From Patescibacteria group bacterium (GTDB taxonomy: Bacteria; Patescibacteriota; Gracilibacteria; Peribacterales; Peribacteraceae), in the NCBI GenBank assembly GCA_018818235.1, contig JAHISE010000067.1:1-34699 (forward strand): a stretch of DNA of 34,699 nt, written 5' to 3'. This document shows, piece after piece, positions 6,227 through 32,507 of the stretch. The notes below the pieces were generated by a model that was not told the origin of the DNA, searched no databases, and saw nothing but the letters and a program-made list of their open reading frames with translations. The translations under genes were made by a program, and so were the position numbers. Positions within the stretch are counted from its first letter, which is position 1. Each line of letters starts with the position of its first letter.

Positions 6227-6745
6227 ATGAAACACGCCCTCCTTTGCACCGAACAAGGTATCCCGCAAGGAACCTCAAATGTCGACTACGCACACGCTGC
6301 GCCGGGCAAGCTGCATAGAGCTTTTTCCATATTTATATTCAGAAATAATTATACTGAATTACTTATCCAAAAGAGGACTGACGGAAAGCGATTTGGAGGA
6401 CTCTGGGCAAATACCTGCTGTTCCCATCTGCAGGAAAACGAAGATTTGATCGCAGCAGCAGAGAAAAGGCTCAAGGAAGAGTGCGGATTCACCTGTCCAC
6501 TCACTGAACACTCCTCCTTTATATATAGAGCGAACGATCCAACTGGAGATGCTGTTGAATATGAGTTTGATTCGATATTAATAGGTGACTTCACAAACCC
6601 TAACCTTAATCCTGATCCCACCGAGATTTCCGAACTGAAATGGATCAACATCGATAAGCTTACAAACGAAATCGAAAACAATCCTGAGAAATTTGCACCA
6701 TGGCTTCCAATAGCACTTGATCGGATCTTGAGTATAGAAATTTGA
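6227..6745 (+). CDS. idi: Isopentenyl-diphosphate delta-isomerase, type 1 (NUDIX fold)
   Basis: Motifs LHRAFSIFIF, WANTCCSH, EYEFD and FAPW. Confidence 0.95.
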   Translation: MKHALLCTEQGIPQGTSNVDYAHAAPGKLHRAFSIFIFRNNYTELLIQKRTDGKRFGGLWANTCCSHLQENEDLIAAAEKRLKEECGFTCPLTEHSSFIYRANDPTGDAVEYEFDSILIGDFTNPNLNPDPTEISELKWINIDKLTNEIENNPEKFAPWLPIALDRILSIEI

Positions 6746-6802: not shown

Positions 6803-7498
6803 ATGGATAAACCTTCAAGCTTACATCTCGCAATCATCCCTGACGGAAATAGACGTTGGGCGAAGAATCGCAGCCTCCACCCCTGGAAAGGACACGAACA
6901 AGCAATAGAAAACTTCCGATCTATAACAGAGTGGTGCAGAAACGATCCGCGTGTGAACATTCTGACTGTCTGGTGCTTCTCTACAGAAAACTGGAAGCGT
7001 GATCCAAAGGAAATAGAGATGCTTATGAAGATGTTGGAGGATTATTTAAGAAAGGAGCAGGAAGGTTTTATCGAAAAGAAGACAAAGTCCCTTCATTCCG
7101 GAAGAAAAGATAGGATCCCCTCTTCTCTTGCGCAGTTAATTGAGGAAGTTGAAAAGAAAACTGCTGACCAGTCCGAATTTACTCTGCACTTGGCTGTTGA
7201 TTACGGTGGGAAGGATGAGATCATACGTGCAATCAATAAAATATCCGTAACGGAAGATTGCGATCTTCCGCTGCGATCAGAAAATGGTATTCGTGAGCAT
7301 CTCGACCATCCGGAATTGTCTGATATTGATTTGATCATCCGAACTTCCGGTGAACAAAGAACCAGCAACTTCTTCCTTTGGCAAACTGTTCACTCCGAAT
7401 GGGTTTTTAATAACAAGTTGTTCCCTGATTTTGAAGTTAGTGACCTAGAATCTGCAGTTGATGACTTCGCAAATCGTACACGTCGCTTTGGTTCATGA
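6803..7498 (+). CDS. uppS: Undecaprenyl diphosphate synthase (cis-prenyltransferase)
   Basis: Motifs HLAIIPDGNRRWA, FSTENWKR, IIRTSGEQRTSNF and RRFG. Confidence 0.96.
   Translation: MDKPSSLHLAIIPDGNRRWAKNRSLHPWKGHEQAIENFRSITEWCRNDPRVNILTVWCFSTENWKRDPKEIEMLMKMLEDYLRKEQEGFIEKKTKSLHSGRKDRIPSSLAQLIEEVEKKTADQSEFTLHLAVDYGGKDEIIRAINKISVTEDCDLPLRSENGIREHLDHPELSDIDLIIRTSGEQRTSNFFLWQTVHSEWVFNNKLFPDFEVSDLESAVDDFANRTRRFGS
7246..7275 (+). repeat. Intragenic REP-like palindrome (in uppS)
   Basis: CGTAACGGAAGAT-TGCG-ATCTTCCGCTGCG. Confidence 0.8.
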
Positions 7499-8442
7499 AA
7501 AACATAGGTTCAGCTCCGGGAAAAATAATTCTTACCGGTGAGTACGCCGTAGTTTTCGGATTCCGTGGTATCGCAATCCCCTCTCCTCTGAAAATGGAAG
7601 TTGAGTTTGAAGAAAACAGATCGATCGAAGGGATTGAAGTTGAGTGGGAAGGTATTAAAGGTGACGAAACAGCCTTCGCCCAGCCGTCGCTCTCCGAGCT
7701 ATGGCCGGCAGGCAAGGCTACGGCTGTCCAGGGTTGGAATTCTAATTTAATAGAGATACTAAATTCAATTCAGCAATTCAAAGGAAAGATTTTTAATGGA
7801 AAACTGACTATCAAAAACTCAATCCCACTCGGAAAAGGTATGGGATCTTCAACTTCACTCGTAATTGCTGTGGCCAGATGCATGCTTGGTGGTGAATGCC
7901 GATCCGAAGCACTTGCGATCGAGAATAAACTGTCACCAAACAACAGTGGAATCGATTTCAATGTGATTTGGGAAGGTTGTCCCATACTGTTTAAGAAAGA
8001 TGAAAAACATCAATTAATTGATATACCCAAAGACTTTCTGAGTGATGCAATATTAATTGATACCGGCACACCAAATGAGTCAACAAAGGAGTTGGTAGCA
8101 TGGGTAACCGACCGTCGTGGTCGTAGCGGAAGATCGTTATCTTCCGATAATGTTTATGAGGCATTGGAAATGATCGGAAATTGTACAGAGCGCCTCATTA
8201 ATAATGATGATTTTTCAAAGATTATTGCTGATAATTATCGCGCCCAACTCACCCTCGGCATCGTCCCTCCTCAGGTTCAGGAATTAATCGAAGAAATTGA
8301 ACAGGCAGGAGGAGCCGCAAAGGTTATGGGGGCGGGCGGGAGAACGGGTGGGGGTGGGATGGTGTTGGCTCTACACAAAAATCTGAAGAATATTGAAGAA
8401 ATAGCTGCACAATATCATCTACAATCACTCACACTTAACTAA
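7495..8442 (+). CDS. mvk: Mevalonate kinase (GHMP kinase)
   Basis: Motifs APGKIILTGEYAVV, IPLGKGMGSS, SGID and AKVMGAGG..GGG; ATGA overlap with uppS. Confidence 0.88.
   Translation: MKNIGSAPGKIILTGEYAVVFGFRGIAIPSPLKMEVEFEENRSIEGIEVEWEGIKGDETAFAQPSLSELWPAGKATAVQGWNSNLIEILNSIQQFKGKIFNGKLTIKNSIPLGKGMGSSTSLVIAVARCMLGGECRSEALAIENKLSPNNSGIDFNVIWEGCPILFKKDEKHQLIDIPKDFLSDAILIDTGTPNESTKELVAWVTDRRGRSGRSLSSDNVYEALEMIGNCTERLINNDDFSKIIADNYRAQLTLGIVPPQVQELIEEIEQAGGAAKVMGAGGRTGGGGMVLALHKNLKNIEEIAAQYHLQSLTLN
7669..7727. repeat. Two nested ~32-nt hairpin elements inserted in frame in mvk
   Basis: ACAGCCTTCGCC[CAGCCGTCGCTCTCCGAGCTATGGCCGGCAGGC]AAGGCTACGGCTGT. Confidence 0.85.
8122..8146 (+). repeat. Intragenic REP-like palindrome (in mvk)
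   Basis: CGTAGCGGAAGATCGTTATCTTCCG. Confidence 0.85.
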
Positions 8443-8486: not shown

Positions 8487-9512
8487 ATGACAACCGCCTC
8501 CTCCTCCCCCAATTCCGCATTCATTAAATACTGGGGCAACCGAAATAATCCCCTCAGGCTTCCTGTGGCAGATTCATTCTCTATGTCACTCGACGGTCCT
8601 ACCGTAGAAATAGATATAGAACACTCAGATGCTTTAAAAGTCATATCATTTAATCCTGATGGAACGCAGCTTGAGCTGGGCGAGAAACATGTGAACAGAT
8701 TTGGAAAGACTTTGGATATGACAAAGGAGTATTTAACAAAGTTGGGAGCACCAGATGCAATTCCTGCTTCCGTTTCCATCACCGTAAGATCTAATATCCC
8801 ACCTGCTGTGGGACTTGCCTCTTCCGCAGCAGTTTTTAGCTGCCTTGCAAAGGCAATACAGGGTTTGGTTGCTCCGGTGATTGAACTTACTAATGATCAG
8901 ACGAGTGTAATAGGTCGATTGGGATCCGGTTCTGCAGGAAGAAGTGTACATGGAGGCTTTGTTGCATTGGTTGCGGGTGAAGGTGAAGAGATCGACAGCT
9001 CTTATGGCAAACAATTCGCAGACCAGAACCATTGGACACTCCATGACATCATAGTTGTACCCACAATGCTGGAGAAAAAGGTCGGATCAACCGAAGGGCA
9101 TGCCACTGCACAAACCAGTCCCGGCTATAATGATCGAGTTGAAGCAATAATGAGCCGCAGACAACAGGAATGTATAGATGCAGTTCTTAAAAAGGACTTC
9201 GAAAAGCTTACCGCAGTGTGCGAAGAAGATGTTCTGGACATGCATCATGTGATGCAGACCTCCAATCCCCCACTTAACTACCTGACTGACGACACTCATA
9301 GGATCACAAACGGAATAATTGAGCTTAGAATCTCCGAACACCTTCCTGTGTTCTACACAATGGATGCCGGCCCTACAGTTCAGCTGATATGTACCGACGA
9401 ATCCGTTGATCGTGTTCGGGAATTTGCCTACGCACAAGAAGGATGCAAGGTTTTTGAGGCGAAGACGGGGGGTGGGGCGAGGATTGTTAGAGAGGTGGCA
9501 TTATCTGCTTGA
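8487..9512 (+). CDS. mvaD: Diphosphomevalonate (or phosphomevalonate) decarboxylase
   Basis: Motifs FIKYWG, GLASSAA, RLGSGSA.RS, KKVGSTEG and YTMDAGP. Confidence 0.92.
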   Translation: MTTASSSPNSAFIKYWGNRNNPLRLPVADSFSMSLDGPTVEIDIEHSDALKVISFNPDGTQLELGEKHVNRFGKTLDMTKEYLTKLGAPDAIPASVSITVRSNIPPAVGLASSAAVFSCLAKAIQGLVAPVIELTNDQTSVIGRLGSGSAGRSVHGGFVALVAGEGEEIDSSYGKQFADQNHWTLHDIIVVPTMLEKKVGSTEGHATAQTSPGYNDRVEAIMSRRQQECIDAVLKKDFEKLTAVCEEDVLDMHHVMQTSNPPLNYLTDDTHRITNGIIELRISEHLPVFYTMDAGPTVQLICTDESVDRVREFAYAQEGCKVFEAKTGGGARIVREVALSA

Positions 9513-9730: not shown

Positions 9731-10987
9731 ATGGACCTCCGAAGCCTCCCTACATCATTAAACTCTTCCGATCGCTGTAACGAGCGTCGCAAAATCATCG
9801 AACGTGAGCTTGGAGCGGACCTTGGAGCACTGAAGATTGATCCAAATAAGCTCGGCAGTGCCGAAGAGAATAATTGCGAACAAATGTTCGGACATGTTCC
9901 GATTCCTGTAGGCCTGGCAGGCCCACTCAAAATTTATTTCAACGGTCGTAGCGGCGATTCGAAAATCGCCGATGAGAATGCCACAAATATTTTCCTCCCA
10001 CTCGCAACAACAGAAGCTGCACTCGTCGCAAGTGTTAATCGCGGGTGCAAAGCTCTCACTTTATCAGGTGGAGTTACAACCAGATCTATATATCACGGCA
10101 TGACCCGATCTCTCGCATTCCGGATTCCGGATTCCGGATTCCGAAACTTCATAGAAACAATTAACAAACTAAAACCTGAGTGGATGAAAATCGGCGAATC
10201 CACCAGCTCCCACCTCAAAATAATTAATTACTACATTGATGAATGTGATAACCATCTATTTGTAACAATCAACTGTGATACCGACGAGGCAATGGGTATG
10301 AACATGGTAACAATTGCCGCTCAGGCAATCGGAGAATGGATCGAGGCACATATTCCTGAGCTTGAATTTATAACAGTGGCCGGAAATGTGGACTCGGATA
10401 AAAAACCGAGCAAAAGAACTCATGATTTGGGAAGGGGTTACGAAGTTTTTGCTGAGGCTGAACTCTCTGAGGAAGTCATCAAGGACGTACTTCATACTAC
10501 CCCCTACTCACTACTCACTACTGCCCAAGCTAAACTTGAATCAGGCTCTAAAGTTGCAGAATCAATAGGTTCAAATCTTCAAGCTGCAAATATTATCGCT
10601 GCACTCTACCTTGCAACGGGTCAGGATGCTGCGCACGTTGTCGAGGGATCGATGGCGGATACAACAATTACAGACGTAGCGGAAGATCGTTATCTTCCGC
10701 TCCGCATATCGGTCCGTTGCCCCGCCATCCTCGTCGGAGTCCGCGGAGGTGGAACTCAACTACCTGCACAATCTCAATGCCTTCAACTTCTTACAAAACC
10801 AATTAACCAATTAACCAATCAACCAATTAACCTACACTTAGCTGAGATCATTGGAGCCGCCGTCCTAGCAGGAGAAATATCGTTATTGGCTGCTCAAGCA
10901 ACTCATACTTTGGCAAAGTCGCATAAATCACTTGCAAGAAATAGTAAAGAACTGGAAAGACCCCAGTTTTTTAAACCCAAATCCTGA
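9731..10987 (+). CDS. hmgA: HMG-CoA reductase, class I (archaeal/eukaryote type); C-terminus extended by an IS insertion
   Basis: Motifs PLATTEAALVASVNRG, DEAMGMNM, GN.DSDKK, ATGQDAAHV and LAGEISL. Confidence 0.95.
   Translation: MDLRSLPTSLNSSDRCNERRKIIERELGADLGALKIDPNKLGSAEENNCEQMFGHVPIPVGLAGPLKIYFNGRSGDSKIADENATNIFLPLATTEAALVASVNRGCKALTLSGGVTTRSIYHGMTRSLAFRIPDSGFRNFIETINKLKPEWMKIGESTSSHLKIINYYIDECDNHLFVTINCDTDEAMGMNMVTIAAQAIGEWIEAHIPELEFITVAGNVDSDKKPSKRTHDLGRGYEVFAEAELSEEVIKDVLHTTPYSLLTTAQAKLESGSKVAESIGSNLQAANIIAALYLATGQDAAHVVEGSMADTTITDVAEDRYLPLRISVRCPAILVGVRGGGTQLPAQSQCLQLLTKPINQLTNQPINLHLAEIIGAAVLAGEISLLAAQATHTLAKSHKSLARNSKELERPQFFKPKS
9947..9971 (+). repeat. Intragenic REP-like palindrome variant (in HMG-CoA reductase)
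   Basis: CGTAGCGGCGATT-CGAA-AATCGCCG, with compensatory stem changes relative to the other copies. Confidence 0.75.
10675..10704 (+). repeat. Intragenic REP-like palindrome (in HMG-CoA reductase)
   Basis: CGTAGCGGAAGATCGTTATCTTCCGCTCCG, encoding VAEDRYLPL. Confidence 0.88.
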
Positions 10988-12257
10988 GAATAGCTTAAAA
11001 CCATGCGGAAAAGGGGCATAGTGTATTTTGACATAGTCCAAATGTCTACTTAACCCATTTTTCGCTATGCAACAATACCTCCATGATGCTCTTAGAAACA
11101 ACCTTCGTCCTGTAATTAAGTATTGCACCAGGCCTCAGCAAAAAGCTGTAAGCGAGGTTGTTCGTGGTCTATTCACAGAAGCCACACCTGTCTTGAGGCA
11201 TGTTGCGCAAGACAAAACAAAAACAGTTAAAAAGCAGGCTGAAAAATACAGCTATCACTTGGGAAACATTGATGTAACAGATGAAGTTGATGCCCTTGCA
11301 TTGAGGAAAGTTAAATCTCAAGTGCGTAAGCACACAGTGATTGCCTATGATCTTTGTGATATCAACAAAGAGTTTTCAAAAAAGATTGAGAAGATGACAA
11401 ATGTATTTGATGGAAGCAGGAGAAAGATAGCACCGGGATTTTTTCTGCATGGCGTTGGTATCAATGGCATTCTCTTAAAGTTTCAAGTGCACGATAATGA
11501 GGTACACACACTCAGCCAAATTCGATCAAAGATCGTTGGAAACATTTCAAAAGAACTCAAAAACAAGGGTATCTGGGTTTTTGATCGTGGCAATGACAGC
11601 AAGACATGGTACCGTGAACTCTGTCAGGTTCACGAAGCTGATTTTATCGCAAGAGTAAAAGAAAATCGTTATGTTGTCTTAAAAGAAACTGGGGATTATT
11701 TGCTTGTGAAAGATTTGGAACCGGGCATGTATGAAGTCCACTTTATGAATTATCACAACAACAAAGTGCACACAGATATCACCTATACACTCATCATCAA
11801 TGAGCACTTGGAAGACAAAGAGCCCATCAGACTAATCAGCAACCTTGGCATTGATCAATTCACATCAGAAGAGTTTGTAACAATGTATCTGGAACGCTGG
11901 GGTATTGAGAATGTTTTCAAAAGAGCAAAGCAGAAGTTTTGTCTTGAAAAGATCAGAGTTCTGAGTTTTCGGAAGTTCAAGAACCTTGTGTCTCTCATTC
12001 AGCTTGCAACCATTATTGCTACTGTAACATTTGTTGCCATTCAGAAGTCCACACATGCAGTTATCGTTGCTGTTGTGAAACTTTACAAAAACTTCCTGTG
12101 GCATCGTTCACTTGAACAAAATCTCGACTCCTTCATTGCATTCATGCAGGCATCTTTGCCAAGACTTGTACATCGTATCAAACTTCCTTCTGACCAAATG
12201 AGCCTGTTTTCAAGGAAGTGTTTAAACAGAGTGGGGTAAAAACTGGGGTCTTTTCAG
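10952..12257 (+). mobile_element. IS4-family insertion sequence, 1306 bp
   Basis: 20-bp TIRs CTGGAAAGACCCCAGTTTTT / CTGAAAAGACCCCAGTTTTT; direct repeat TAAAGAA at 10945-10951 and 12258-12264. Confidence 0.93.
11067..12239 (+). CDS. DDE transposase (IS4 superfamily)
   Basis: Motifs IAYD and VFDRG, plus the Y-R-E-K signature YLERWGIENVFKRAK. Confidence 0.93.
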   Translation: MQQYLHDALRNNLRPVIKYCTRPQQKAVSEVVRGLFTEATPVLRHVAQDKTKTVKKQAEKYSYHLGNIDVTDEVDALALRKVKSQVRKHTVIAYDLCDINKEFSKKIEKMTNVFDGSRRKIAPGFFLHGVGINGILLKFQVHDNEVHTLSQIRSKIVGNISKELKNKGIWVFDRGNDSKTWYRELCQVHEADFIARVKENRYVVLKETGDYLLVKDLEPGMYEVHFMNYHNNKVHTDITYTLIINEHLEDKEPIRLISNLGIDQFTSEEFVTMYLERWGIENVFKRAKQKFCLEKIRVLSFRKFKNLVSLIQLATIIATVTFVAIQKSTHAVIVAVVKLYKNFLWHRSLEQNLDSFIAFMQASLPRLVHRIKLPSDQMSLFSRKCLNRVG

Positions 12258-12450: not shown

Positions 12451-12828
12451 ATGAGAAAAGCTTTGCTGACCACATTGTCGTGGATTGTAGTCGTAGCACT
12501 CATCATGCTTGTTTGCCAATCGATCCGTCAACAGGATCGGAACACAAGTCAATTCCTGATGATGGATAAGTCAAACCGTGTTATTTCCGCCTCAAAAGAA
12601 AGGCACGAACAAAAAATCGCCCATATACTCGAGAGCCCACTAGACCCGGAATTGGACAAAGATACATGGAAGTATCTGAATTGGGAAAGGAAGGAATTGG
12701 ATCTTATGATCCAGAAACACAACAACGAAATCTCTTGTTATGGTTATGACAAAGAAACACCGGCGAGCGAGTACAAACCGATTCCCAAAATCCCGGCCAT
12801 TCAGTGGCCGGAAACTGCCCCACCGTGA
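12451..12828 (+). CDS. Hypothetical membrane-anchored protein
   Basis: N-terminal hydrophobic helix, purine-rich RBS (AAGGAAG) and its own terminator. Confidence 0.7.
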   Translation: MRKALLTTLSWIVVVALIMLVCQSIRQQDRNTSQFLMMDKSNRVISASKERHEQKIAHILESPLDPELDKDTWKYLNWERKELDLMIQKHNNEISCYGYDKETPASEYKPIPKIPAIQWPETAPP

Positions 12829-13020: not shown

Positions 13021-14058
13021 ATGCACTCCTCAATAATCTCCTTCGGCCAATACATCCCCTCCAAACGAATCAAAACTGAGGAGATTGCACGGCAACATTC
13101 AAAGGATCCTGCTCCTTATATAAAAGGATTGGGAGTAACCGAGAAATCAGTCCCCAACCAAGGCGAAGATACTTTTACGATGGCGGTTGAGGCGGGTAGG
13201 CAAGCATTAAACTCCGTAGCGGAAGATCGATATCTTCCGCCCCTGCGATCCTCGCAAATTTCCGCTGTCTTCGTCGGCTCCGAAAGTCACCCGTACGCAG
13301 TTAAACCCACAAGCGGAATGGTAGCCTCCGCACTTGAGTGTCATCCCTTCTGTCATTGTGCTGACTTGGAGTTTGCATGCAAAGCCGGAACCGCAGCAAT
13401 GCAAATTGTTGATAGCATGGTGAGGTCCGGTCAGATTGAATATGGAATGGCTATAGGATCGGATACTGCTCAAGGCAAACCCGGTGATGCACTCGAGTAC
13501 ACAGCTGCCGCAGGAGCAGGTGCGATCATACTTGGACCGGAAAATTCCAAGAATGCCATCTGCAGAATAGAAAAGACGCTATCTTTTACATCAGACACTC
13601 CTGACTTTTGGAGAAACTCAGAGAAAAAGTACCCCGAACATGCCGGGCGCTTTACGGGTGAGCCTTCTTATTTCCGTCATACCGAAGAAGCACTAAAAGG
13701 AATACTCGAAATTACTAAAATGGAGGTTGGCGACTTTGCTCACGCAGTATTCCACATGCCCAATGCAAAGTTCCCTTCCAAGATTGCAAATAAATTCGGA
13801 TTTACCAAAGAGCAAATGGAACATGGCTTCATTGTTCCCAAAATTGGGAACACATACAGTGCATGTTCACTGCTTGGGCTGATATCAGTTCTGCAAAAAG
13901 CAAAGAAAGATGAAAAGATACTTCTTGTTAGCTACGGATCGGGTGCGGGGTCGGATGCGTTTGTGTTTACGATGCTGAAGGATGGAGTTGAACTACCCTC
14001 AGATGAAAGAGCAACTGAATATGTGGATTATAATGAGTATGTAAGGTGTACTTCTTAA
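13021..14058 (+). CDS. HMG-CoA synthase, archaeal type
   Basis: 345 aa; motifs GSESHPYAVKP, FACKAGT (catalytic Cys), FHMPNAKFP, IGNTYSA and SYGSGAGSD. Confidence 0.95.
   Translation: MHSSIISFGQYIPSKRIKTEEIARQHSKDPAPYIKGLGVTEKSVPNQGEDTFTMAVEAGRQALNSVAEDRYLPPLRSSQISAVFVGSESHPYAVKPTSGMVASALECHPFCHCADLEFACKAGTAAMQIVDSMVRSGQIEYGMAIGSDTAQGKPGDALEYTAAAGAGAIILGPENSKNAICRIEKTLSFTSDTPDFWRNSEKKYPEHAGRFTGEPSYFRHTEEALKGILEITKMEVGDFAHAVFHMPNAKFPSKIANKFGFTKEQMEHGFIVPKIGNTYSACSLLGLISVLQKAKKDEKILLVSYGSGAGSDAFVFTMLKDGVELPSDERATEYVDYNEYVRCTS
13215..13240 (+). repeat. Intragenic REP-like palindrome (in HMG-CoA synthase)
   Basis: CGTAGCGGAAGATCGATATCTTCCGC, encoding VAEDRYLP. Confidence 0.88.
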
Positions 14059-14092: not shown

Positions 14093-14354
14093 CGACCTCA
14101 CCCCCTGTCCCCCTCTCCTGCCACGCAAATGACTTTGAATAAGTCTGATGTATATATTCAATTCTGGATACACACAGGAGAGGGGGGAGCCCATATCATA
14201 GAAATGAATATCATTGCTACATGATAATGAAAAGAATCTAAAAACCTACTTAAACTTAGGCTCCCCCATCTCCTCTGAATCTGATTATATATTAGCAATA
14301 GATAACATAGGGGTTCACTGACGTGGGAGGAGAGGGGGACAGGGGGTGAGGTCG
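14093..14354. mobile_element. CCCCTCTCC double-hairpin MITE-like element (262 bp)
   Basis: TIR CGACCTCACCCCCTGTCCCCCTCTCC; inverted homologue of 32113-32507. Confidence 0.85.
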
Positions 14355-14436: not shown

Positions 14437-15552
14437 ATGAATCAGGACATCTACATCACCGGAACCGGCCAAACACCCTTTGGAGAACATTGGGACTTAA
14501 GTCTAAAAGATTTAATGGAGCAAGCCATATCAAAAGCTATTGAATCATCAGAATTAACCGCACTTGATATCGATTTTATCATTGTCTCCAACATGCTCGG
14601 CGAAAGAACCAATGACCAAGCACATTTGGGAGCAATGGCATCCGCAATGCTTCCTCATAGACCTCCTGCCATAAGAACCGAGGCCGCATGTGCATCGGGA
14701 TCGGTCGCAATTCATACGGCGTTGAGTTTACTGGAGAGCGGACGTGCCGAAACAGTCTTGGTAATAGGAGTCGAGAAGATGACAGATGTTCCAACAGAAG
14801 AAATTTCCGCAGCACTTATGGGAGCCGCCGATGCGGAGAAAGATATTCCTTCAGGGCTCACATTCCCCGGAATTTTCGGACTGATCGCTAACAGATACAT
14901 GTACGAATATAGTCTGACCAGAGATAAATTGAATATAGTAAGTGCCCGACATCACGAAAATGCGGTTTATAATCCCAATGCACAGTTCCAAGTTAAGATT
15001 CCTGCTGAAAAAGTCTCTCAGAGCGCAACAGTTGCGGACCCACTTTGTCTTTTAGACTGTTCTCCAATCAGTGACGGAGCTGCTGCTGTCATTCTTTCCA
15101 CTAAACATGAGTCACCAATCAGAATTGTGGCTTCACAAATGAGCACTGATACTTTAAGTATTACAGATCGACCCTCATTAACATCGTTCCCGGCAACAAA
15201 AGATGCTGTTGAACGTGCACTGGAAGAAGCTCAGATTTCTCGCGAAGATATTTCCCATTTGGAGATACATGATTGCTTTTCCATAGCTGCCATAATCAAT
15301 TTGGAAGACCTAGGGTATGCAATTCCGGGGCAAGGAATTCGGCTATATGAAGCGGATAACTCGATGCCTTCAATTAATAAGTCCGGTGGACTTAAAGCAT
15401 GCGGTCATCCTGTAGGAGCAACAGGTGTAAAGCAGATCAGCGAACTTACTGCGCAACTTAAATCTTCAAATGAGCGCTATGCTCTTGCTCACAACTTTGG
15501 AGGAGCCGGTGCAACATGCTGCATTCACATTTTAGAAAATTCAAATGCCTGA
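14437..15552 (+). CDS. Acetoacetyl-CoA thiolase, archaeal/SCP2 type
   Basis: Motifs EAACASG, HDCF, GHPVGATG and HNFGG. Confidence 0.93.
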   Translation: MNQDIYITGTGQTPFGEHWDLSLKDLMEQAISKAIESSELTALDIDFIIVSNMLGERTNDQAHLGAMASAMLPHRPPAIRTEAACASGSVAIHTALSLLESGRAETVLVIGVEKMTDVPTEEISAALMGAADAEKDIPSGLTFPGIFGLIANRYMYEYSLTRDKLNIVSARHHENAVYNPNAQFQVKIPAEKVSQSATVADPLCLLDCSPISDGAAAVILSTKHESPIRIVASQMSTDTLSITDRPSLTSFPATKDAVERALEEAQISREDISHLEIHDCFSIAAIINLEDLGYAIPGQGIRLYEADNSMPSINKSGGLKACGHPVGATGVKQISELTAQLKSSNERYALAHNFGGAGATCCIHILENSNA

Positions 15553-16507
15553 TTCTCCTCAAGTAATTCACCGAGCCAATAAAGAACAGTATAAAAAAAT
15601 GCAGAGTGGTGTCATCATCTCTCATACAACAATAATGAATCCGCCTAAGGGTTTCGGAAGCAAGCCGAAGACTATTGGGTTAATTGAATTGAATGATGGT
15701 AGCCGAGTGCTTGGTAATATTATTACGCGCGTTTCGGAATCCGACTCAACATTCTGTCCGGATTCCGGATTCCGGATTCCGATCATTGGGCAAAGCGTTA
15801 CTCCCCACCTAAGACTAAATAGAATCAATCCCCAAGGCCTGCGCATCTACGAAGTCCAATACCAAGTAACTCAAGAACAACCCGTTAAACAAAAACAAGA
15901 ATTCCACGGTTACATAATTGCCCTTACCGGACCTTCGGGAGTCGGGAAAACAACCGTAAGTAAAATTCTTACTACCAAAATAGGAGACTATGCTGTCAAA
16001 GTTCCGATACTTACAACCAGAAAATCTTCCAATCAGGATGATGGTGAATATGAATACATCTCAGGAAGAGAATTTGATGTACTCAAGAAACAAAACAAGC
16101 TCGCATCCTTCACTCGCATCCCATCTTCTACAGAATCGCGATGGTACGGATATAGAAAGAGTGATATCGAAGTAATTCTTAAGCAAAAGAAAATCCCGGT
16201 TGTAATTACAGAGATGGGACTACTGCAAGAACTTGCAAATAACTACGGTCGCCGATCAATTCTTTCATTCGGACTTCTCCCCCCGGGAAAGAGCAAGAGA
16301 CTAATGCTCAGTTGCCTGCTCCATCGTCTAAGAAAGCGTGGTCGTGACAGCGAAGAGGCTATCGAAGAGCGCTTAAAGAACGCCGAACGAGATCTGCAGT
16401 ACTTTGACGATATGGGACATCTGTTTGATGATTTGATCGTGAATGAGGATTTGGATACGGTTATTTCTATGCTTAAGGGGAAAGTATTGGCAATCGCGAA
16501 GGGGTAA
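15545..16507 (+). CDS. DUF35-type OB-fold domain fused to a guanylate-kinase-like P-loop domain
   Basis: N-terminal SHTTI..PPKGF...IGLIELNDGSRV (DUF35 OB-fold). C-terminal GPSGVGKTT, LTTR, WYG and RLRKRGRDSEEAIEERL. Overlaps the thiolase stop. Confidence 0.85.
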   Translation: MPDSPQVIHRANKEQYKKMQSGVIISHTTIMNPPKGFGSKPKTIGLIELNDGSRVLGNIITRVSESDSTFCPDSGFRIPIIGQSVTPHLRLNRINPQGLRIYEVQYQVTQEQPVKQKQEFHGYIIALTGPSGVGKTTVSKILTTKIGDYAVKVPILTTRKSSNQDDGEYEYISGREFDVLKKQNKLASFTRIPSSTESRWYGYRKSDIEVILKQKKIPVVITEMGLLQELANNYGRRSILSFGLLPPGKSKRLMLSCLLHRLRKRGRDSEEAIEERLKNAERDLQYFDDMGHLFDDLIVNEDLDTVISMLKGKVLAIAKG

Positions 16508-17022: not shown

Positions 17023-17850
17023 ATGAAAAAACAAAAACACACCATCAATATCGAACTTTACGAGGCAATGTTTGTTGCCAGCTTACTACTGACAATAACC
17101 CTTGCCACGCTATCATCTATGAATAGGACGCATAGTGCTGAGGTTATGGATGCTAAGAGTGGCAGTGGTGCTGTTGTAGATCAATCCGGAGCATTGGTGG
17201 TTCCACATCTGCTAACTGAAGATGAACGTAATGAGCGAATATTCGGTTTTATACTACGAAGACGAAGCAAGCAGAAAGAGTTTTTTGCATATAAGAATGA
17301 AGATAGCGAAAGATGGATCAAGCGCAAACAACACGGAGACTCGTGCCTTATGGAACTTAGGATGGCAAACAGAGATACCAAATTGCCAATCCTCTTTAGA
17401 TGCTACAGAGCTCAACTTACTTTGAATCTGGAGTCACTTCGCAAAGAAAAAGCATTTGTACTAAATATGCCCGGTATTTCCGAAGATAAATTGAATCAAG
17501 CGACGAGTTCAATCGATAATTTGACTGAAGCAATCACAACAATGATAGATGGAATTGATTCCGTAGTTTATACAACAAAGGAATCTTTGGAAGAGTCCAA
17601 AGTGCTGCTTGCAGAAAATTACAGGACACCTTATTGGAAAGCTCAAGAAGAACTTCGCGCAGATTACCTGCTTACATGGGCTGCATATTTTATGGATAAG
17701 ATCGAAAAGATAGAGAACACCGACCTTTCTCCGGAAGATGAGGAATTGGTGACTAATGCGCGTGAATGTATCGAGGATGTGATGTTAAAGATTCAGCTTG
17801 AGGATGCTCAGGGTAGATTTAAGGAATGCGTGGAAATAATGAGGAATTGA
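17023..17850 (+). CDS. Hypothetical secreted or membrane-anchored helical protein
   Basis: 275-aa ORF with an N-terminal TM segment; TGCTATAAT upstream. Confidence 0.8.
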   Translation: MKKQKHTINIELYEAMFVASLLLTITLATLSSMNRTHSAEVMDAKSGSGAVVDQSGALVVPHLLTEDERNERIFGFILRRRSKQKEFFAYKNEDSERWIKRKQHGDSCLMELRMANRDTKLPILFRCYRAQLTLNLESLRKEKAFVLNMPGISEDKLNQATSSIDNLTEAITTMIDGIDSVVYTTKESLEESKVLLAENYRTPYWKAQEELRADYLLTWAAYFMDKIEKIENTDLSPEDEELVTNARECIEDVMLKIQLEDAQGRFKECVEIMRN

Positions 17851-18783: not shown

Positions 18784-20541
18784 ATGCGCATGAAAAGATA
18801 CCATTCCAGCCAAGGATTCACCCTGCTAGAAATACTAATCGTAATGGTGATTCTTATCATTCTTTTTGGATTAATATTTGTAAAACTTCGTCCAATAAAG
18901 CATAAAGGGCAAGCTTATGACATAGAAAGGATGGCTGAAGTAAAAAGTATTGAAAGCGGAGTTACACAATACATTATAGATAACTTGTCTTTGCCCTCAG
19001 GCACTCCTATAGGAGACGCATCGGTTGCAAAAGATATATGTCAGGAATCTGTCACCGGTGCATCGTGTACCGGTAGCCCTGTTAATGGAGTTGATCTTTC
19101 TAGCCTAGTACCCGTTTTCCTTCAAACAATCCCTGTGGATCCTGCGGCCACAGGATCGATCGTAACTGGATATAAATTTTATAGCGACGGCGAAGATGTG
19201 TATGCAATAGCACCATTGATTAGTGCTTTGCCATCCTATACTCCGCCAACCGGAGATGATGATGAAGGCGAAGACGAAAGCGGATGTGCAGGCAGTCTAA
19301 TTGCGTATTGGAAACTAGATGAAACTACCGGAACATCCTCTACTGATGAATGTGGCGGTACTCACAATGGCACACTTCTTAATGGAGCCACTTGGATGAG
19401 TGGACTTTTTGATAATGCAATTAAGCTTGACGGATCTAATGATTCGATAAATATACCCACACATTCCGACTTCAACTCATTAAATTCCTTCACAACTTCT
19501 GCATGGATATTGCCTTATACACTCAATGATTCACGAATAATACAAAATGATGCTTTGGAGATGACATTTTATTCTGATGGGCGCGTTCGATTTTCTATTG
19601 CCGGAATACTTGGGAACTACTATTCAATAAGCAAGCTACCGGTTAATCATTGGTCACATGTAGCAATAGATTATGATGGATCTAATGTTAAACTATACAT
19701 CAATGGCGCATTGGACATATCTTTAGTTGCATCTGGCACTACGTCTTCGGATGCAGGCGATTTAAACATCGGATCTACAGGTTCATCTAATTACTTCAGT
19801 GGAAAAATCGATGATGTACGATTTTATAATTCATCTATCAGTGCCTCCGAAATAGGAACACTTGCAGCTGCAGGATTTGATGGCTCGTTAGTTGCTTATT
19901 GGAAACTGGATGAGGGATCCGGAAATACTTCTGCGGATTCTTCCGGTAGTACAAACGAGCATTTTCTTACATTGTACAATAACCCTACTTGGGAAGCTTC
20001 TTCTACTCCACCAACAAATTATAGCAATCCATATTCTATCAATCTCGATGGGAGTAATGATTATGGACGAGTTGCCTCCCATAATGATTTCACATTCCCC
20101 GAAGGATTCAGTGTGAGCCTATGGGCATATCTGGATACAAGCATGCCTTATGGTGGCGGTCTTGTAGGAAGCCAACACTTCTATTATCAAGGATGGATGA
20201 TTTATACATATAATAATAGCGTACGTGTTTATATTAATAATGAGCTTAAAGGAAATACCAGCATAAGTTCTGCAGAATGGAAACTGATAACTTTGGTATG
20301 GGATGGATCAAACGTTAAGCTATATATAAATAGCACACTCACGAATGATACTGTTTATGGTACTGCACCAAATAGCGGAGGTGATAGTATCATCATTGGT
20401 GGCATGTACTCCTCCGGTTCCGACACAGGTGGCAATCCCAGTTCTTTCTTTAATGATAAAATCGATGATATTAAAATATTCAATAGACCACTGTCTTTTG
20501 CGGAAGTGCAAAGAATTGCTTCGGGAAATCCGCTCCCTTAA
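18784..20541 (+). CDS. Type IV pilin-like protein with two LamG/concanavalin-like domains
   Basis: GFTLLEIL N-methylation motif; two copies of LxAYWKLDE...IDDV/IR/KxxN. Confidence 0.9.
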   Translation: MRMKRYHSSQGFTLLEILIVMVILIILFGLIFVKLRPIKHKGQAYDIERMAEVKSIESGVTQYIIDNLSLPSGTPIGDASVAKDICQESVTGASCTGSPVNGVDLSSLVPVFLQTIPVDPAATGSIVTGYKFYSDGEDVYAIAPLISALPSYTPPTGDDDEGEDESGCAGSLIAYWKLDETTGTSSTDECGGTHNGTLLNGATWMSGLFDNAIKLDGSNDSINIPTHSDFNSLNSFTTSAWILPYTLNDSRIIQNDALEMTFYSDGRVRFSIAGILGNYYSISKLPVNHWSHVAIDYDGSNVKLYINGALDISLVASGTTSSDAGDLNIGSTGSSNYFSGKIDDVRFYNSSISASEIGTLAAAGFDGSLVAYWKLDEGSGNTSADSSGSTNEHFLTLYNNPTWEASSTPPTNYSNPYSINLDGSNDYGRVASHNDFTFPEGFSVSLWAYLDTSMPYGGGLVGSQHFYYQGWMIYTYNNSVRVYINNELKGNTSISSAEWKLITLVWDGSNVKLYINSTLTNDTVYGTAPNSGGDSIIIGGMYSSGSDTGGNPSSFFNDKIDDIKIFNRPLSFAEVQRIASGNPLP

Positions 20542-20553
20542 AAAGAAGAATCT

Positions 20554-21006
20554 ATGAAAGATTCCTTTATCAGAAAACACAATGGCTTCACTCTATTGGA
20601 ATTGCTGATGGTAATGGCAATTATGGTAATTCTGTTGGGTATTATAAGTGTTAAATTAAAACCAATGCTTCGCACCGGTCTGGCATATGATATTCGAAGA
20701 AAGAGTGATGTAAAACAACTGGAAAATGCACTTACGCAAGCTATGATTGATAGAATTAGTCCACCAAATAATATTCCTTCCTCAGAAGCAAATGCAAAAT
20801 GGATTTGCCAATACACTTATAAGGGCATTGACTGCATTGATCCTCCTTTGGGAGGTATTGATTTATCTTATCTGGTTCCGGATTATTTATCAGATATACC
20901 AGTAGATCCTATAATTGAAACAGATGATTTATCAGGATATAAAATATATAAGGATGGTTCATTCTTTTACATAATTGCTCCATATTTGGAACAATTACCA
21001 GATTGA
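20554..21006 (+). CDS. Type IV pilin-like protein
   Basis: GFTLLELL motif; paralogous to the N-terminus of the upstream gene (DLSxLVP..L..IPVDP). Confidence 0.9.
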   Translation: MKDSFIRKHNGFTLLELLMVMAIMVILLGIISVKLKPMLRTGLAYDIRRKSDVKQLENALTQAMIDRISPPNNIPSSEANAKWICQYTYKGIDCIDPPLGGIDLSYLVPDYLSDIPVDPIIETDDLSGYKIYKDGSFFYIIAPYLEQLPD

Positions 21007-32112: not shown

Positions 32113-32507
32113 CGACCTCACCCCCTGGCCCCCTCTCCTCCCACATAAGTGAGCATCATAGTTACTTGTTGTATACTCCTTCGCCTAAATAATTCCGGTT
32201 CTTGAGGACTCATTAATTATTAACAAATCTATTTCTAATGGCTATGGAGTACGAGATTGCATAATAAAAGCACAGTGAATTTTTCGGAATTATTAACTAA
32301 AAGCAGTATATATATACTTTAAAACATAGAGGAAAGGGGAACTCCGCAAATGAATGTTTTTTAATTACATTTGCAATTCAATGAAATTAAATTTATTCCT
32401 TTAATACGGGCTCCCCCCTCTCCTGTGAGTATCCAAAAATCTCAAACAGCATAAAATTTACTCGAAGCCCTTGTTGGGGCAGGAGAGGGGGCCAGGGGGT
32501 GAGGTCG
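32113..32507. mobile_element. CCCCTCTCC double-hairpin element carrying a nested MITE
   Basis: TIR CGACCTCACCCCCTGGCCCCCTCTCC; inverted homologue of 14093-14354. Confidence 0.88.
32172..32310. mobile_element. 139-bp TA-bounded MITE, copy 2
   Basis: Near-identical to 25474-25612. Confidence 0.92.

Follow-up and report, generated by a model that had tools for sequence, protein, structure and literature searches.

A guanylate kinase-like domain fused to a DUF35-type OB domain is a candidate isopentenyl phosphate kinase in the mevalonate cluster of Peribacteraceae

The mevalonate (MVA) gene cluster of a Patescibacteria group bacterium of the family Peribacteraceae (GCA_018818235.1, contig JAHISE010000067.1, positions 1-34,699; this whole stretch of 34,699 nucleotides is called the window below) closes with a gene whose product joins a DUF35-type OB domain to a guanylate kinase-like (GKL) domain. 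The fusion is real, strongly conserved and tied to a known gap in the pathway. We tentatively propose that GKL is the missing isopentenyl phosphate kinase (IPK) of a lower MVA pathway of the haloarchaeal/Chloroflexi type, an assignment that we rate at slightly less than an even chance; both the acceptor substrate of the domain and its catalytic activity are what we infer. An earlier note on this DNA, made from the sequence alone, had named the protein as a candidate phosphomevalonate kinase (PMK) or IPK. The genome spans 1.58 Mb in 164 contigs, with a completeness of 95.3%. The gene and its parts lie as follows.

15545-16507, + strand: DUF35(OB)-GKL fusion gene, 320 aa, the final gene of the cluster (PF00625, PF01796 and TIGR03263 matches)
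15545-15886, + strand: DUF35-type OB domain, residues 1-114 (PF01796, 23 bits; secondary structure of the model)
15887-16504, + strand: GKL domain, residues 115-320 (PF00625, 51.9 bits; Foldseek match to 1gky)
15929-15955, + strand: P-loop GPSGVGKTT, residues 129-137 (motif in 120 of 120 relatives)

The kinase half of the protein is readily recognized, with the Pfam profile Guanylate_kin (PF00625) matching residues 125-311 at 51.9 bits against a cut-off of 25.2. The DUF35 OB profile (PF01796) matches residues 21-60 below its cut-off of 27.1 bits (23 bits, and 25.9 bits in another run), and 117 of the 120 listed homologues of the fusion have a precomputed PF01796 match. The earlier note had described an N-terminal DUF35 OB-fold lacking CxxC, and the lack of CxxC holds: the window protein has no such motif, and a single one of the 120 relatives carries one within its first 110 residues. 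The zinc ribbon of DUF35/OB_ChsH2_C scaffolds is absent from the fusion. An AlphaFold2 model built from 65 family sequences (mean pLDDT 88.7, pTM 0.70) places an N-terminal helix (residues 5-18) before five strands, a poorly ordered linker and the kinase domain. Around residues 64-75 the OB domain carries an insert specific to the window protein, modeled with low confidence and opposite gaps in 107-118 of the 120 relatives. When the whole model, rather than the isolated OB domain, was searched with Foldseek, the top match in the Protein Data Bank (PDB) was yeast guanylate kinase with GMP (1gky; E 7.2e-16, TM 0.88 on the target, r.m.s.d. 2.4 Å, 25% identity). At the level of sequence the PDB matches include the GK domains of MAGUK proteins. 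The equivalog model for Gmk (TIGR03263) gives the fusion 80.8 bits against a cut-off of 160.45, and that for PhnN (TIGR02322) matches it weakly (31.4 bits, cut-off 156). Scans with Pfam and NCBIfam yielded no match of the fusion to PF04275 at E <= 0.01, none to AA_kinase (Pfam scan) and none to the GHMP-type PMK models TIGR01220 and NF040957.

The active site was compared with that of Gmk through an alignment of a 120-member family, the best 120 of 483 homologues, with the canonical Gmk of the same genome. As the earlier note had read by eye, GKL keeps the P-loop GPSGVGKTT (129-137), TTR (157-159), YG (201-202) and the lid arginines, which are R261, R263, R265, R267 and R276. The losses that it listed are borne out as well. 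Ile155 takes the place of the Ser before TTR (Gmk Ser36), and the second Arg after TTR is absent, this position being Ser162 in the window protein and Lys in 104 of 120 relatives; LASF (186-189) stands opposite VLEW, and VITE (220-223) opposite REVD, of the genome's own Gmk. At the guanine positions GKL has Ser188 (Ala, Thr or Ser in the family) for Glu70, Tyr203 for Thr82 and Glu223 for Asp102. In Gmk the residues that read guanine are the Ser before TTR, the Glu of xLEW, the Ser or Thr after YG and the Asp of DxQG, and the Gmk counterparts of R159, K162, Y169, Y201 and the lid arginines hold the GMP phosphate.

Within the family GPSGVGK[ST] is found in 120 of 120 members, and the P-loop, R159, K162 (104/120), Y169, Y201 and the lid arginines show little or no variation. 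To these the family adds conserved residues of its own, namely R199, Y203, R204, W212, E223, R236, R237, K251 and R252, of which K251 and R252 sit in a six-residue insert in the lid of GKL. The ATP site (P-loop and lid arginines) is intact and the phosphate-holding residues are kept, and the guanine readers have been swapped for a different set that is strictly conserved. Because the former are kept and the latter replaced, the domain fits a phosphomonoester acceptor other than GMP. By themselves the active-site residues do not separate isopentenyl phosphate (IP) from mevalonate 5-phosphate (MVA-5-P) as that acceptor.

The other pathway genes of the window, called from the list of open reading frames (ORFs) and from Pfam and NCBIfam profile searches, all lie on the + strand.

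6227-6745, + strand: type 1 isopentenyl diphosphate (IPP) isomerase, IDI (NF002995, 131.7 bits, cut-off 127)
6803-7498, + strand: cis-prenyltransferase UppS (PF01255, 230.4 bits; TIGR00055, 199.3 bits)
7495-8442, + strand: divergent GHMP kinase of the mevalonate kinase family, 'GHMPdiv' (TIGR00549, 101.8 bits, under the cut-off of 163)
8487-9512, + strand: decarboxylase 'MDD1' with residues of the phosphomevalonate decarboxylase (PMD) type (YWGN, Arg at +6, GSTEGH, catalytic DAGP; top PDB match 6n0x)
9731-10987, + strand: HMG-CoA reductase, HMGR (PF00368, 308.4 bits)
13021-14058, + strand: archaeal-type HMG-CoA synthase, HMGS (NF003274, 430.6 bits, cut-off 244)
14437-15552, + strand: archaeal-type acetoacetyl-CoA thiolase (NF004720, 396.7 bits; Thiolase_N/C)

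The fusion gene overlaps the thiolase stop, as the earlier note had said, its ATG lying inside the last codons of the thiolase gene with an overlap of 8 nt, and we propose that the two are translationally coupled. It is also the last gene of the cluster in the window; the next + strand ORF of at least 100 aa begins at 17023 and has no Pfam match.

Two findings of the earlier note's own choosing could have removed the need for a new kinase, and neither was made. The fusion is not the sole gmk of the genome, since a canonical gmk lies on another contig (G000:C86:288-869). Its product scores 140 bits with TIGR03263, also under the cut-off of 160.45, vs 80.8 for the fusion, and still has all five residues missing from the fusion (Ser, second Arg, Glu, Thr and Asp). 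Nor was a canonical PMK or IPK found elsewhere in this 95%-complete genome by searches for GHMP kinases, PF04275 and NF040647. GHMP-domain matches number two genome-wide, both inside the window. For the animal-type PMK (PF04275) the best score in the genome, 12.6 bits and not in the fusion, is no credible match, and for the amino-acid-kinase IPK (NF040647) the best scores are 33-34.7 bits against a cut-off of 120, a cut-off passed by 0 of 20 family genomes. The amino-acid-kinase genes of the genome are a UMP kinase, a ProB-like kinase and an aspartate-kinase-like gene. We considered the ProB-like kinase (G000:C85) as a hidden IPK and rejected it: it scores 166.7 bits as proB vs 34.7 as IPK, and as the gene occurs in only 15 of 61 family genomes it cannot be the IPK of the family. 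The divergent GHMP kinase is likewise unlikely to be a hidden GHMP-type PMK, with 21.3 bits for TIGR01220 vs 146-244 for true PMKs of the candidate phyla radiation (CPR); the latter were found in 5 of 251 genomes of the phylum, none of them in this family. One kinase step of the lower MVA pathway is open in this genome. A passage of Anantharaman et al. 2016 (PMC4736985) calls the MVA pathway of Peribacter 'near-complete', with the steps to MVA-5-P and from mevalonate 5-diphosphate (MVA-5-PP) identified, and PMC6107057 reports homologues of MVK, PMVK and DPMD for the CPR.

A word-indexed search returned 483 homologues of the fusion, the best 120 of which are 50-69% identical to it and 287-326 aa long, nearly all with both domains. 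Their named sources are Peribacteraceae, Peribacter and Peregrinibacteria, and they are labeled 'OB-fold domain-containing protein' or 'guanylate kinase'. Across 151 genomes sampled evenly from the GTDB class of the window, full-length versions turned up in the window's own family alone, the top match outside it being an ordinary Gmk at 58 bits. When 1.84 billion representatives were scanned by HMMER for the kinase domain alone, 17 clusters reached E <= 1e-30, some of them fused (~300 aa) and others unfused (194-224 aa); beyond these, scores fall to the level of ordinary guanylate kinases. One unfused cluster (P0124, P0271 and P0272), 50% identical to the kinase domain of the window, is named 'guanylate kinase [Candidatus Kentron sp.]'; this gammaproteobacterial label, attached to metagenome bins, could reflect a mis-binned contig or a transfer.

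The expectation of the earlier note that the fusion would track the MVA cluster is met closely in 61 family genomes, sampled at one per genus and assigned to Peribacteraceae by source names. A GHMP match (PF00288) is present in 49 of these and in none of the other 12, and GKL (E <= 3e-32) occurs in 48 of the 61, all 48 among the GHMP-positive genomes. GKL was found in 0 of the 12 GHMP-negative genomes, where the best match is a cross-match to the housekeeping Gmk at E >= 2.5e-11. The sole GHMP-positive genome without a GKL match is G176, which does not represent a true absence, because its cluster runs off the contig right after the thiolase gene. Family genomes also show a second, weaker Gmk match, and the gene order HMGS-thiolase-fusion is kept in the related clusters that were fetched.

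The decarboxylase of the cluster bears on which step is open. It passes the 'diphosphomevalonate decarboxylase' model TIGR01240 narrowly (177.9 vs a cut-off of 171.35 bits). Its closest solved homologue is 6n0x, with 160.2 bits; the best true diphosphomevalonate decarboxylase (DMD) reaches 118.2 bits. According to the legend of Fig. 5 in PMC9254496, 6n0x is the PMD of Anaerolinea thermophila bound to MVA-5-P. In PDB alignments 6n0x carries Asn within YWGx and His within GSTxGx, and its companion entry 6n0z departs from it at these two positions alone, having Lys and Met, the residues that Arabidopsis and mouse DMD have there. A statement in PMC9254496 credits Thomas et al. with turning PMD specificity into DMD specificity by mutagenesis, and 6n0z is probably a variant from that work. 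Table 4 of Dellas et al. 2013 (PMC3857490) lists Lys21 as MDD-like, and a residue other than Lys together with Arg at position 27 as MPD-like. The window decarboxylase has Asn, Arg and His, the same set as in 23 of 23 window-type decarboxylases of the family, and the catalytic DAGP is kept in 22 of the 22 that reach that position, one more being cut by a contig end. On these residues its product is most likely IP, so that the open step is more likely to be that from IP to IPP than that from MVA-5-P to MVA-5-PP. The claim of a missing kinase in the earlier note therefore survives in part: a candidate for a phosphomonoester kinase gap is supported by co-occurrence, whereas the MVA-5-P step that the note preferred is, given a PMD-type decarboxylase, less likely than the IP step.

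In the pathway that we propose, mevalonate would be phosphorylated to MVA-5-P by the divergent mevalonate kinase (MVK) paralogue (7495-8442), and MVA-5-P would be converted to IP by the PMD-type decarboxylase (8487-9512). GKL would then phosphorylate IP to IPP with ATP, and IPP would pass to IDI and UppS. The OB domain would act as the scaffold which in archaea bridges acetoacetyl-CoA thiolase and HMG-CoA synthase.

If GKL were instead a PMK, converting MVA-5-P to MVA-5-PP, the substrate of the decarboxylase would be the diphosphate, as it is classically. The gap in the pathway, the existence of a separate gmk and the co-occurrence with the cluster would serve this reading equally well, and the passage of PMC4736985 places the gap between MVA-5-P and MVA-5-PP. 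The score of the decarboxylase above the TIGR01240 cut-off points the same way, and the conserved basic residues R199, R204, R236, R237, K251 and R252 could conceivably hold a carboxylate. Against it stand the PMD-type residues (Asn, Arg and His), found in 23 of 23 window-type decarboxylases, and a PMD as the nearest solved homologue, and we consider a PMK quite improbable.

The step that we give to the divergent GHMP kinase also requires comment. The scores of such kinases with TIGR00549 are 77-102 bits, under the cut-off of 163. Its PDB matches are nine mevalonate kinases, one heptose-phosphate kinase and no PMK, and it keeps the GxSGxD motif, which holds the catalytic base of MVKs. The 'mevalonate kinase' of the cluster is a divergent MVK paralogue, and its step is uncertain. 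A 20-residue insert (residues 53-72) in the window's copy is absent from at least 90% of 35 aligned family orthologues.

The cluster regions of 39 further genomes, mapped by BLASTP to the proteins of the window, include three layouts, in all of which the fusion is present.

Layout A, the window and 22 others: divergent GHMP kinase and window-type decarboxylase; fusion present
Layout B, 11 genomes (L013, L014, L031, L039, L041, L047, L049-L051, L053 and L058): divergent GHMP kinase, an extra kinase and a second type of decarboxylase; fusion present
Layout C, 3 genomes (L022, L028 and L036): divergent GHMP kinase and a variant of the second decarboxylase type, with no extra kinase; fusion present

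The extra kinase of layout B is a true mevalonate kinase, scoring 190-207 bits with TIGR00549, above the cut-off of 163. The second type of decarboxylase is 27-31% identical to that of the window and has Arg or Lys at position 21, the position of the DMD-type Lys. In 14 of 14 sequences of this type, which are thus only putative decarboxylases, Asn replaces the catalytic Asp (NTGQD for DAGP). The NTGQ variant, together with Lys at the DMD-type position, also occurs in two other CPR genomes, G389 and G232. The former encodes two MVK paralogues (TIGR00549, 213 and 160 bits) and a decarboxylase with Lys and Met, the DMD signature, and no GKL match was found in its fetched cluster. One further family genome, G007 (L042, G007:C1:28000-45000), is rated 100% complete and encodes HMGR, HMGS, thiolase, UppS, IDI and the divergent GHMP kinase, together with a fusion whose kinase site is conserved. 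PF00288 matches this genome only once, and its cluster lacks an MDD-family decarboxylase.

Acceptor residues were compared in 38 sequences, 28 of them from layouts A and C, two unfused proteins and G007, and 10 from layout B. Where the extra true mevalonate kinase is absent, none of R159, Y169 and R199 has been replaced in any of the 28 sequences. Among the 10 from layout B at least one is replaced in nine, and only G198 keeps all three; R159 is replaced in 5/10, Y169 in 7/10 and R199 in 8/10, with one more ambiguous. The GxxGxGK core of the P-loop and the lid motif are intact in all 38, Ser131 varying in two. A tree was built from linked thiolase, HMGS and HMGR sequences of 35 genomes; it excludes three layout B genomes whose fetched loci did not contain the full set of these genes. 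Layout B needs seven changes on this tree, at least five of them forced by well-supported branches.

These observations bring in a second alternative, in which GKL is a mevalonate kinase analogue acting on the 5-hydroxyl and the second phosphorylation, of MVA-5-P or IP, falls to the divergent GHMP kinase. The erosion of acceptor residues where a bona fide mevalonate kinase is present (9/10 vs 0/28) is what this would predict, and it is favored too by a divergent GHMP kinase that is found in all cluster types without type-specific conserved substitutions, by the five or more changes of cluster type on the upper-pathway tree, and by G389, in which one of two MVK paralogues accompanying a decarboxylase is presumably the second kinase and no GKL match is seen. 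It is hard to reconcile with the strictly kept GKL residues whose counterparts in Gmk bind the acceptor's phosphate, as these fit a phosphomonoester acceptor. The divergent GHMP kinase, moreover, retains GxSGxD, and its PDB matches from the MVA pathway are all mevalonate kinases. An unfused GKL in genomes without any mevalonate gene, described below, would make no sense under it. We regard a mevalonate kinase analogue as improbable.

Retention of the P-loop and lid while acceptor residues are lost implies that the domain was kept for something other than its original acceptor, and this raises a third possibility: that GKL is not a pathway kinase at all. It might be a nucleotide-binding regulatory or structural module of the thiolase/HMGS complex, like the catalytically dead GK domains of MAGUK proteins, or it might phosphorylate some other phosphomonoester, for example a nucleotide or prenyl phosphate. 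In 10 genomes with the extra MVK the P-loop and lid motif persist despite the lost acceptor residues, MAGUK domains are among the PDB sequence matches, and in two genomes an unfused GKL lies among cell-envelope genes, adjoining a histidine phosphatase. The strict conservation of the acceptor residues in 28 sequences and in the 120-member family argues instead for catalysis on a defined acceptor. The distribution, too, follows the MVA cluster, and the GHMP, PF04275 and IPK searches found no other kinase for the open step. A role outside the pathway seems to us unlikely on balance, with a substantial share of the probability nonetheless.

The unfused proteins belong to G159 (95% complete) and G163 (92%), in which no HMGR, no mevalonate-type GHMP genes and no IspH were found. 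In both an intact GKL survives that has no OB part, and it follows UppS and a histidine phosphatase. The genes form an apparent operon of UppS, His_Phos_1 and GKL (L015 5919-7903 and L016 4549-6542) that adjoins a Wzy_C protein and a UDP-GlcNAc 2-epimerase, both cell-envelope genes. Survival of GKL beside UppS argues for an acceptor downstream of the decarboxylase, and a PMK would have no use in these two genomes, where no decarboxylase or mevalonate kinase was found. The OB part is absent exactly in these two, which lack thiolase and HMGS nearby and in which no HMGR was found; that it was lost together with thiolase and HMGS supports a scaffold role for it. The methylerythritol phosphate pathway was considered as the source of IPP in genomes without HMGR and rejected, IspH being not found in 5 of 5.

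Several points weigh against GKL as an IPK. The PMD signature consists of two to three residues and one engineered variant, the latter identified by sequence alone. Five genomes without an MVA cluster retain UppS and not GKL, which shows that UppS does not need GKL. Every cluster type includes the divergent GHMP kinase, in which no conserved substitution is specific to a layout. Among five independent pairs, erosion goes with layout B in three to four and the opposite is seen in none, and the pairs are so few that the sign test is underpowered (p 0.125-0.25). Searches at the IPK cut-off and with TIGR01220 found no recognizable IPK or PMK in layout B genomes, so that the pathway there must be finished by two MVK paralogues and a decarboxylase. 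Read most simply, this comparison means that GKL and the true mevalonate kinase can stand in for each other, and GKL would then be an MVK analogue rather than an IPK. Layout C, with a Lys21 decarboxylase and a conserved GKL in three genomes, fits a PMK best. Layout B can also be read in a second way, in which the true MVK paralogue acts as the PMK and a module of PMK and DMD replaced that of PMD and GKL; this reading fits an IPK.

Taken together with the scaffold role, the assignment of GKL as an IPK suggests a broader history, which we offer tentatively as possible and a shade more doubtful than an even chance would allow. A Gmk-fold domain would have been recruited as a new IPK on a DUF35 scaffold, bringing the first two enzymes and the last kinase into one assembly, and PMD and GKL would have been swapped repeatedly for an all-GHMP lower pathway, with the acceptor site decaying and the ATP site kept. 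Gene order and domain loss suggest a physical tethering of the fusion to thiolase and HMGS. A complex prediction for thiolase, HMGS and residues 1-118 of the fusion, with alignments supplied, scored high, as did a control in which the thiolase was replaced, and so it weighs neither for nor against tethering.

GKL shares with Gmk (PF00625, TIGR03263, 1gky) the fold, the P-loop, TTR, two Tyr and the lid arginines; unlike Gmk, it reaches half of the equivalog cut-off, has Ile, Ala/Thr/Ser, Tyr and Glu at the guanine positions, extra conserved basic residues, a six-residue lid insert and a DUF35 OB fusion, and occurs in a genome with a separate Gmk. PhnN, the ribose 1,5-bisphosphate phosphokinase (TIGR02322), is a precedent within the Gmk family for turning a sugar phosphomonoester into a diphosphate, although it has no OB domain, and GKL lies far under its cut-off and in a different genomic context. 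Animal-type PMK has the NMP-kinase fold and, like GKL, is a P-loop kinase of the MVA pathway that adds phosphate to phosphate, but the fusion gives no match to its family, PF04275. With the amino-acid-kinase IPK (NF040647; Dellas et al. 2013, PMC3857490) GKL would share the proposed reaction and the position after phosphomevalonate decarboxylase. The two folds are unrelated, and our claim is that GKL works like that enzyme, not that it is a member of its family.

The OB half resembles the DUF35 scaffold of the archaeal thiolase/HMG-CoA synthase complex (Vogeli et al. 2018, as described in PMC12960953) in its probable PF01796 OB fold and in being encoded directly after thiolase and HMGS; unlike that scaffold, it has no rubredoxin-like zinc ribbon and has gained a C-terminal kinase domain. 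Fusions of HMGS with DUF35 have already been published, as a passage of PMC12960953 reports. In full-text literature searches we found no published guanylate kinase-like enzyme, and no DUF35-kinase fusion, in the MVA pathway. A free-standing DUF35 protein follows thiolase in the CPR genome G394 (L071 8188-8634; PF01796, 59.8 bits) and has no CxxC downstream of its first Met, and the zinc ribbon may be missing from CPR DUF35 proteins more generally.

Three further features lie within the cluster of the window.

11067-12239, + strand: IS4-type DDE transposase gene between HMGR and HMGS, outside the pathway (PF01609, 54.7 bits)
12451-12828, + strand: small ORF of 125 aa without a Pfam match
14093-14354, no strand assigned: element resembling a miniature inverted-repeat transposable element (MITE), between HMGS and thiolase, with 40-nt terminal inverted repeats

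The transposase gene is a single copy in the assembly. Together with the 125-aa ORF it separates HMGR from HMGS, which are adjacent or close in most related clusters. The MITE-like element is 262 bp long, its arms (14093-14132 and 14315-14354) being 90% complementary, and BLASTN finds relatives (~67-82% identical) on eight other contigs and in the window at ~32113-32507. Downstream of the cluster, at 18784-21006, are two genes with N-terminal prepilin methylation motifs, one of whose products has 585 aa and two Laminin_G_3 domains.

GKL is a concrete, testable candidate for the phosphorylation step that, in the passage of PMC4736985 cited above, is unaccounted for in Peregrinibacteria. If the IPK assignment is true, a third, unrelated family would join the GHMP and animal PMKs and the amino-acid-kinase IPKs among the kinases that make the diphosphate of IPP, and the haloarchaeal/Chloroflexi-type route would extend to the CPR. 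A scaffold protein would then carry a late-pathway enzyme, and the family names 'guanylate kinase' and 'OB-fold domain-containing protein' would be corrected. The finding also bears on arguments about the ancestral MVA pathway that rest on the kinases of CPR genomes (PMC6107057).

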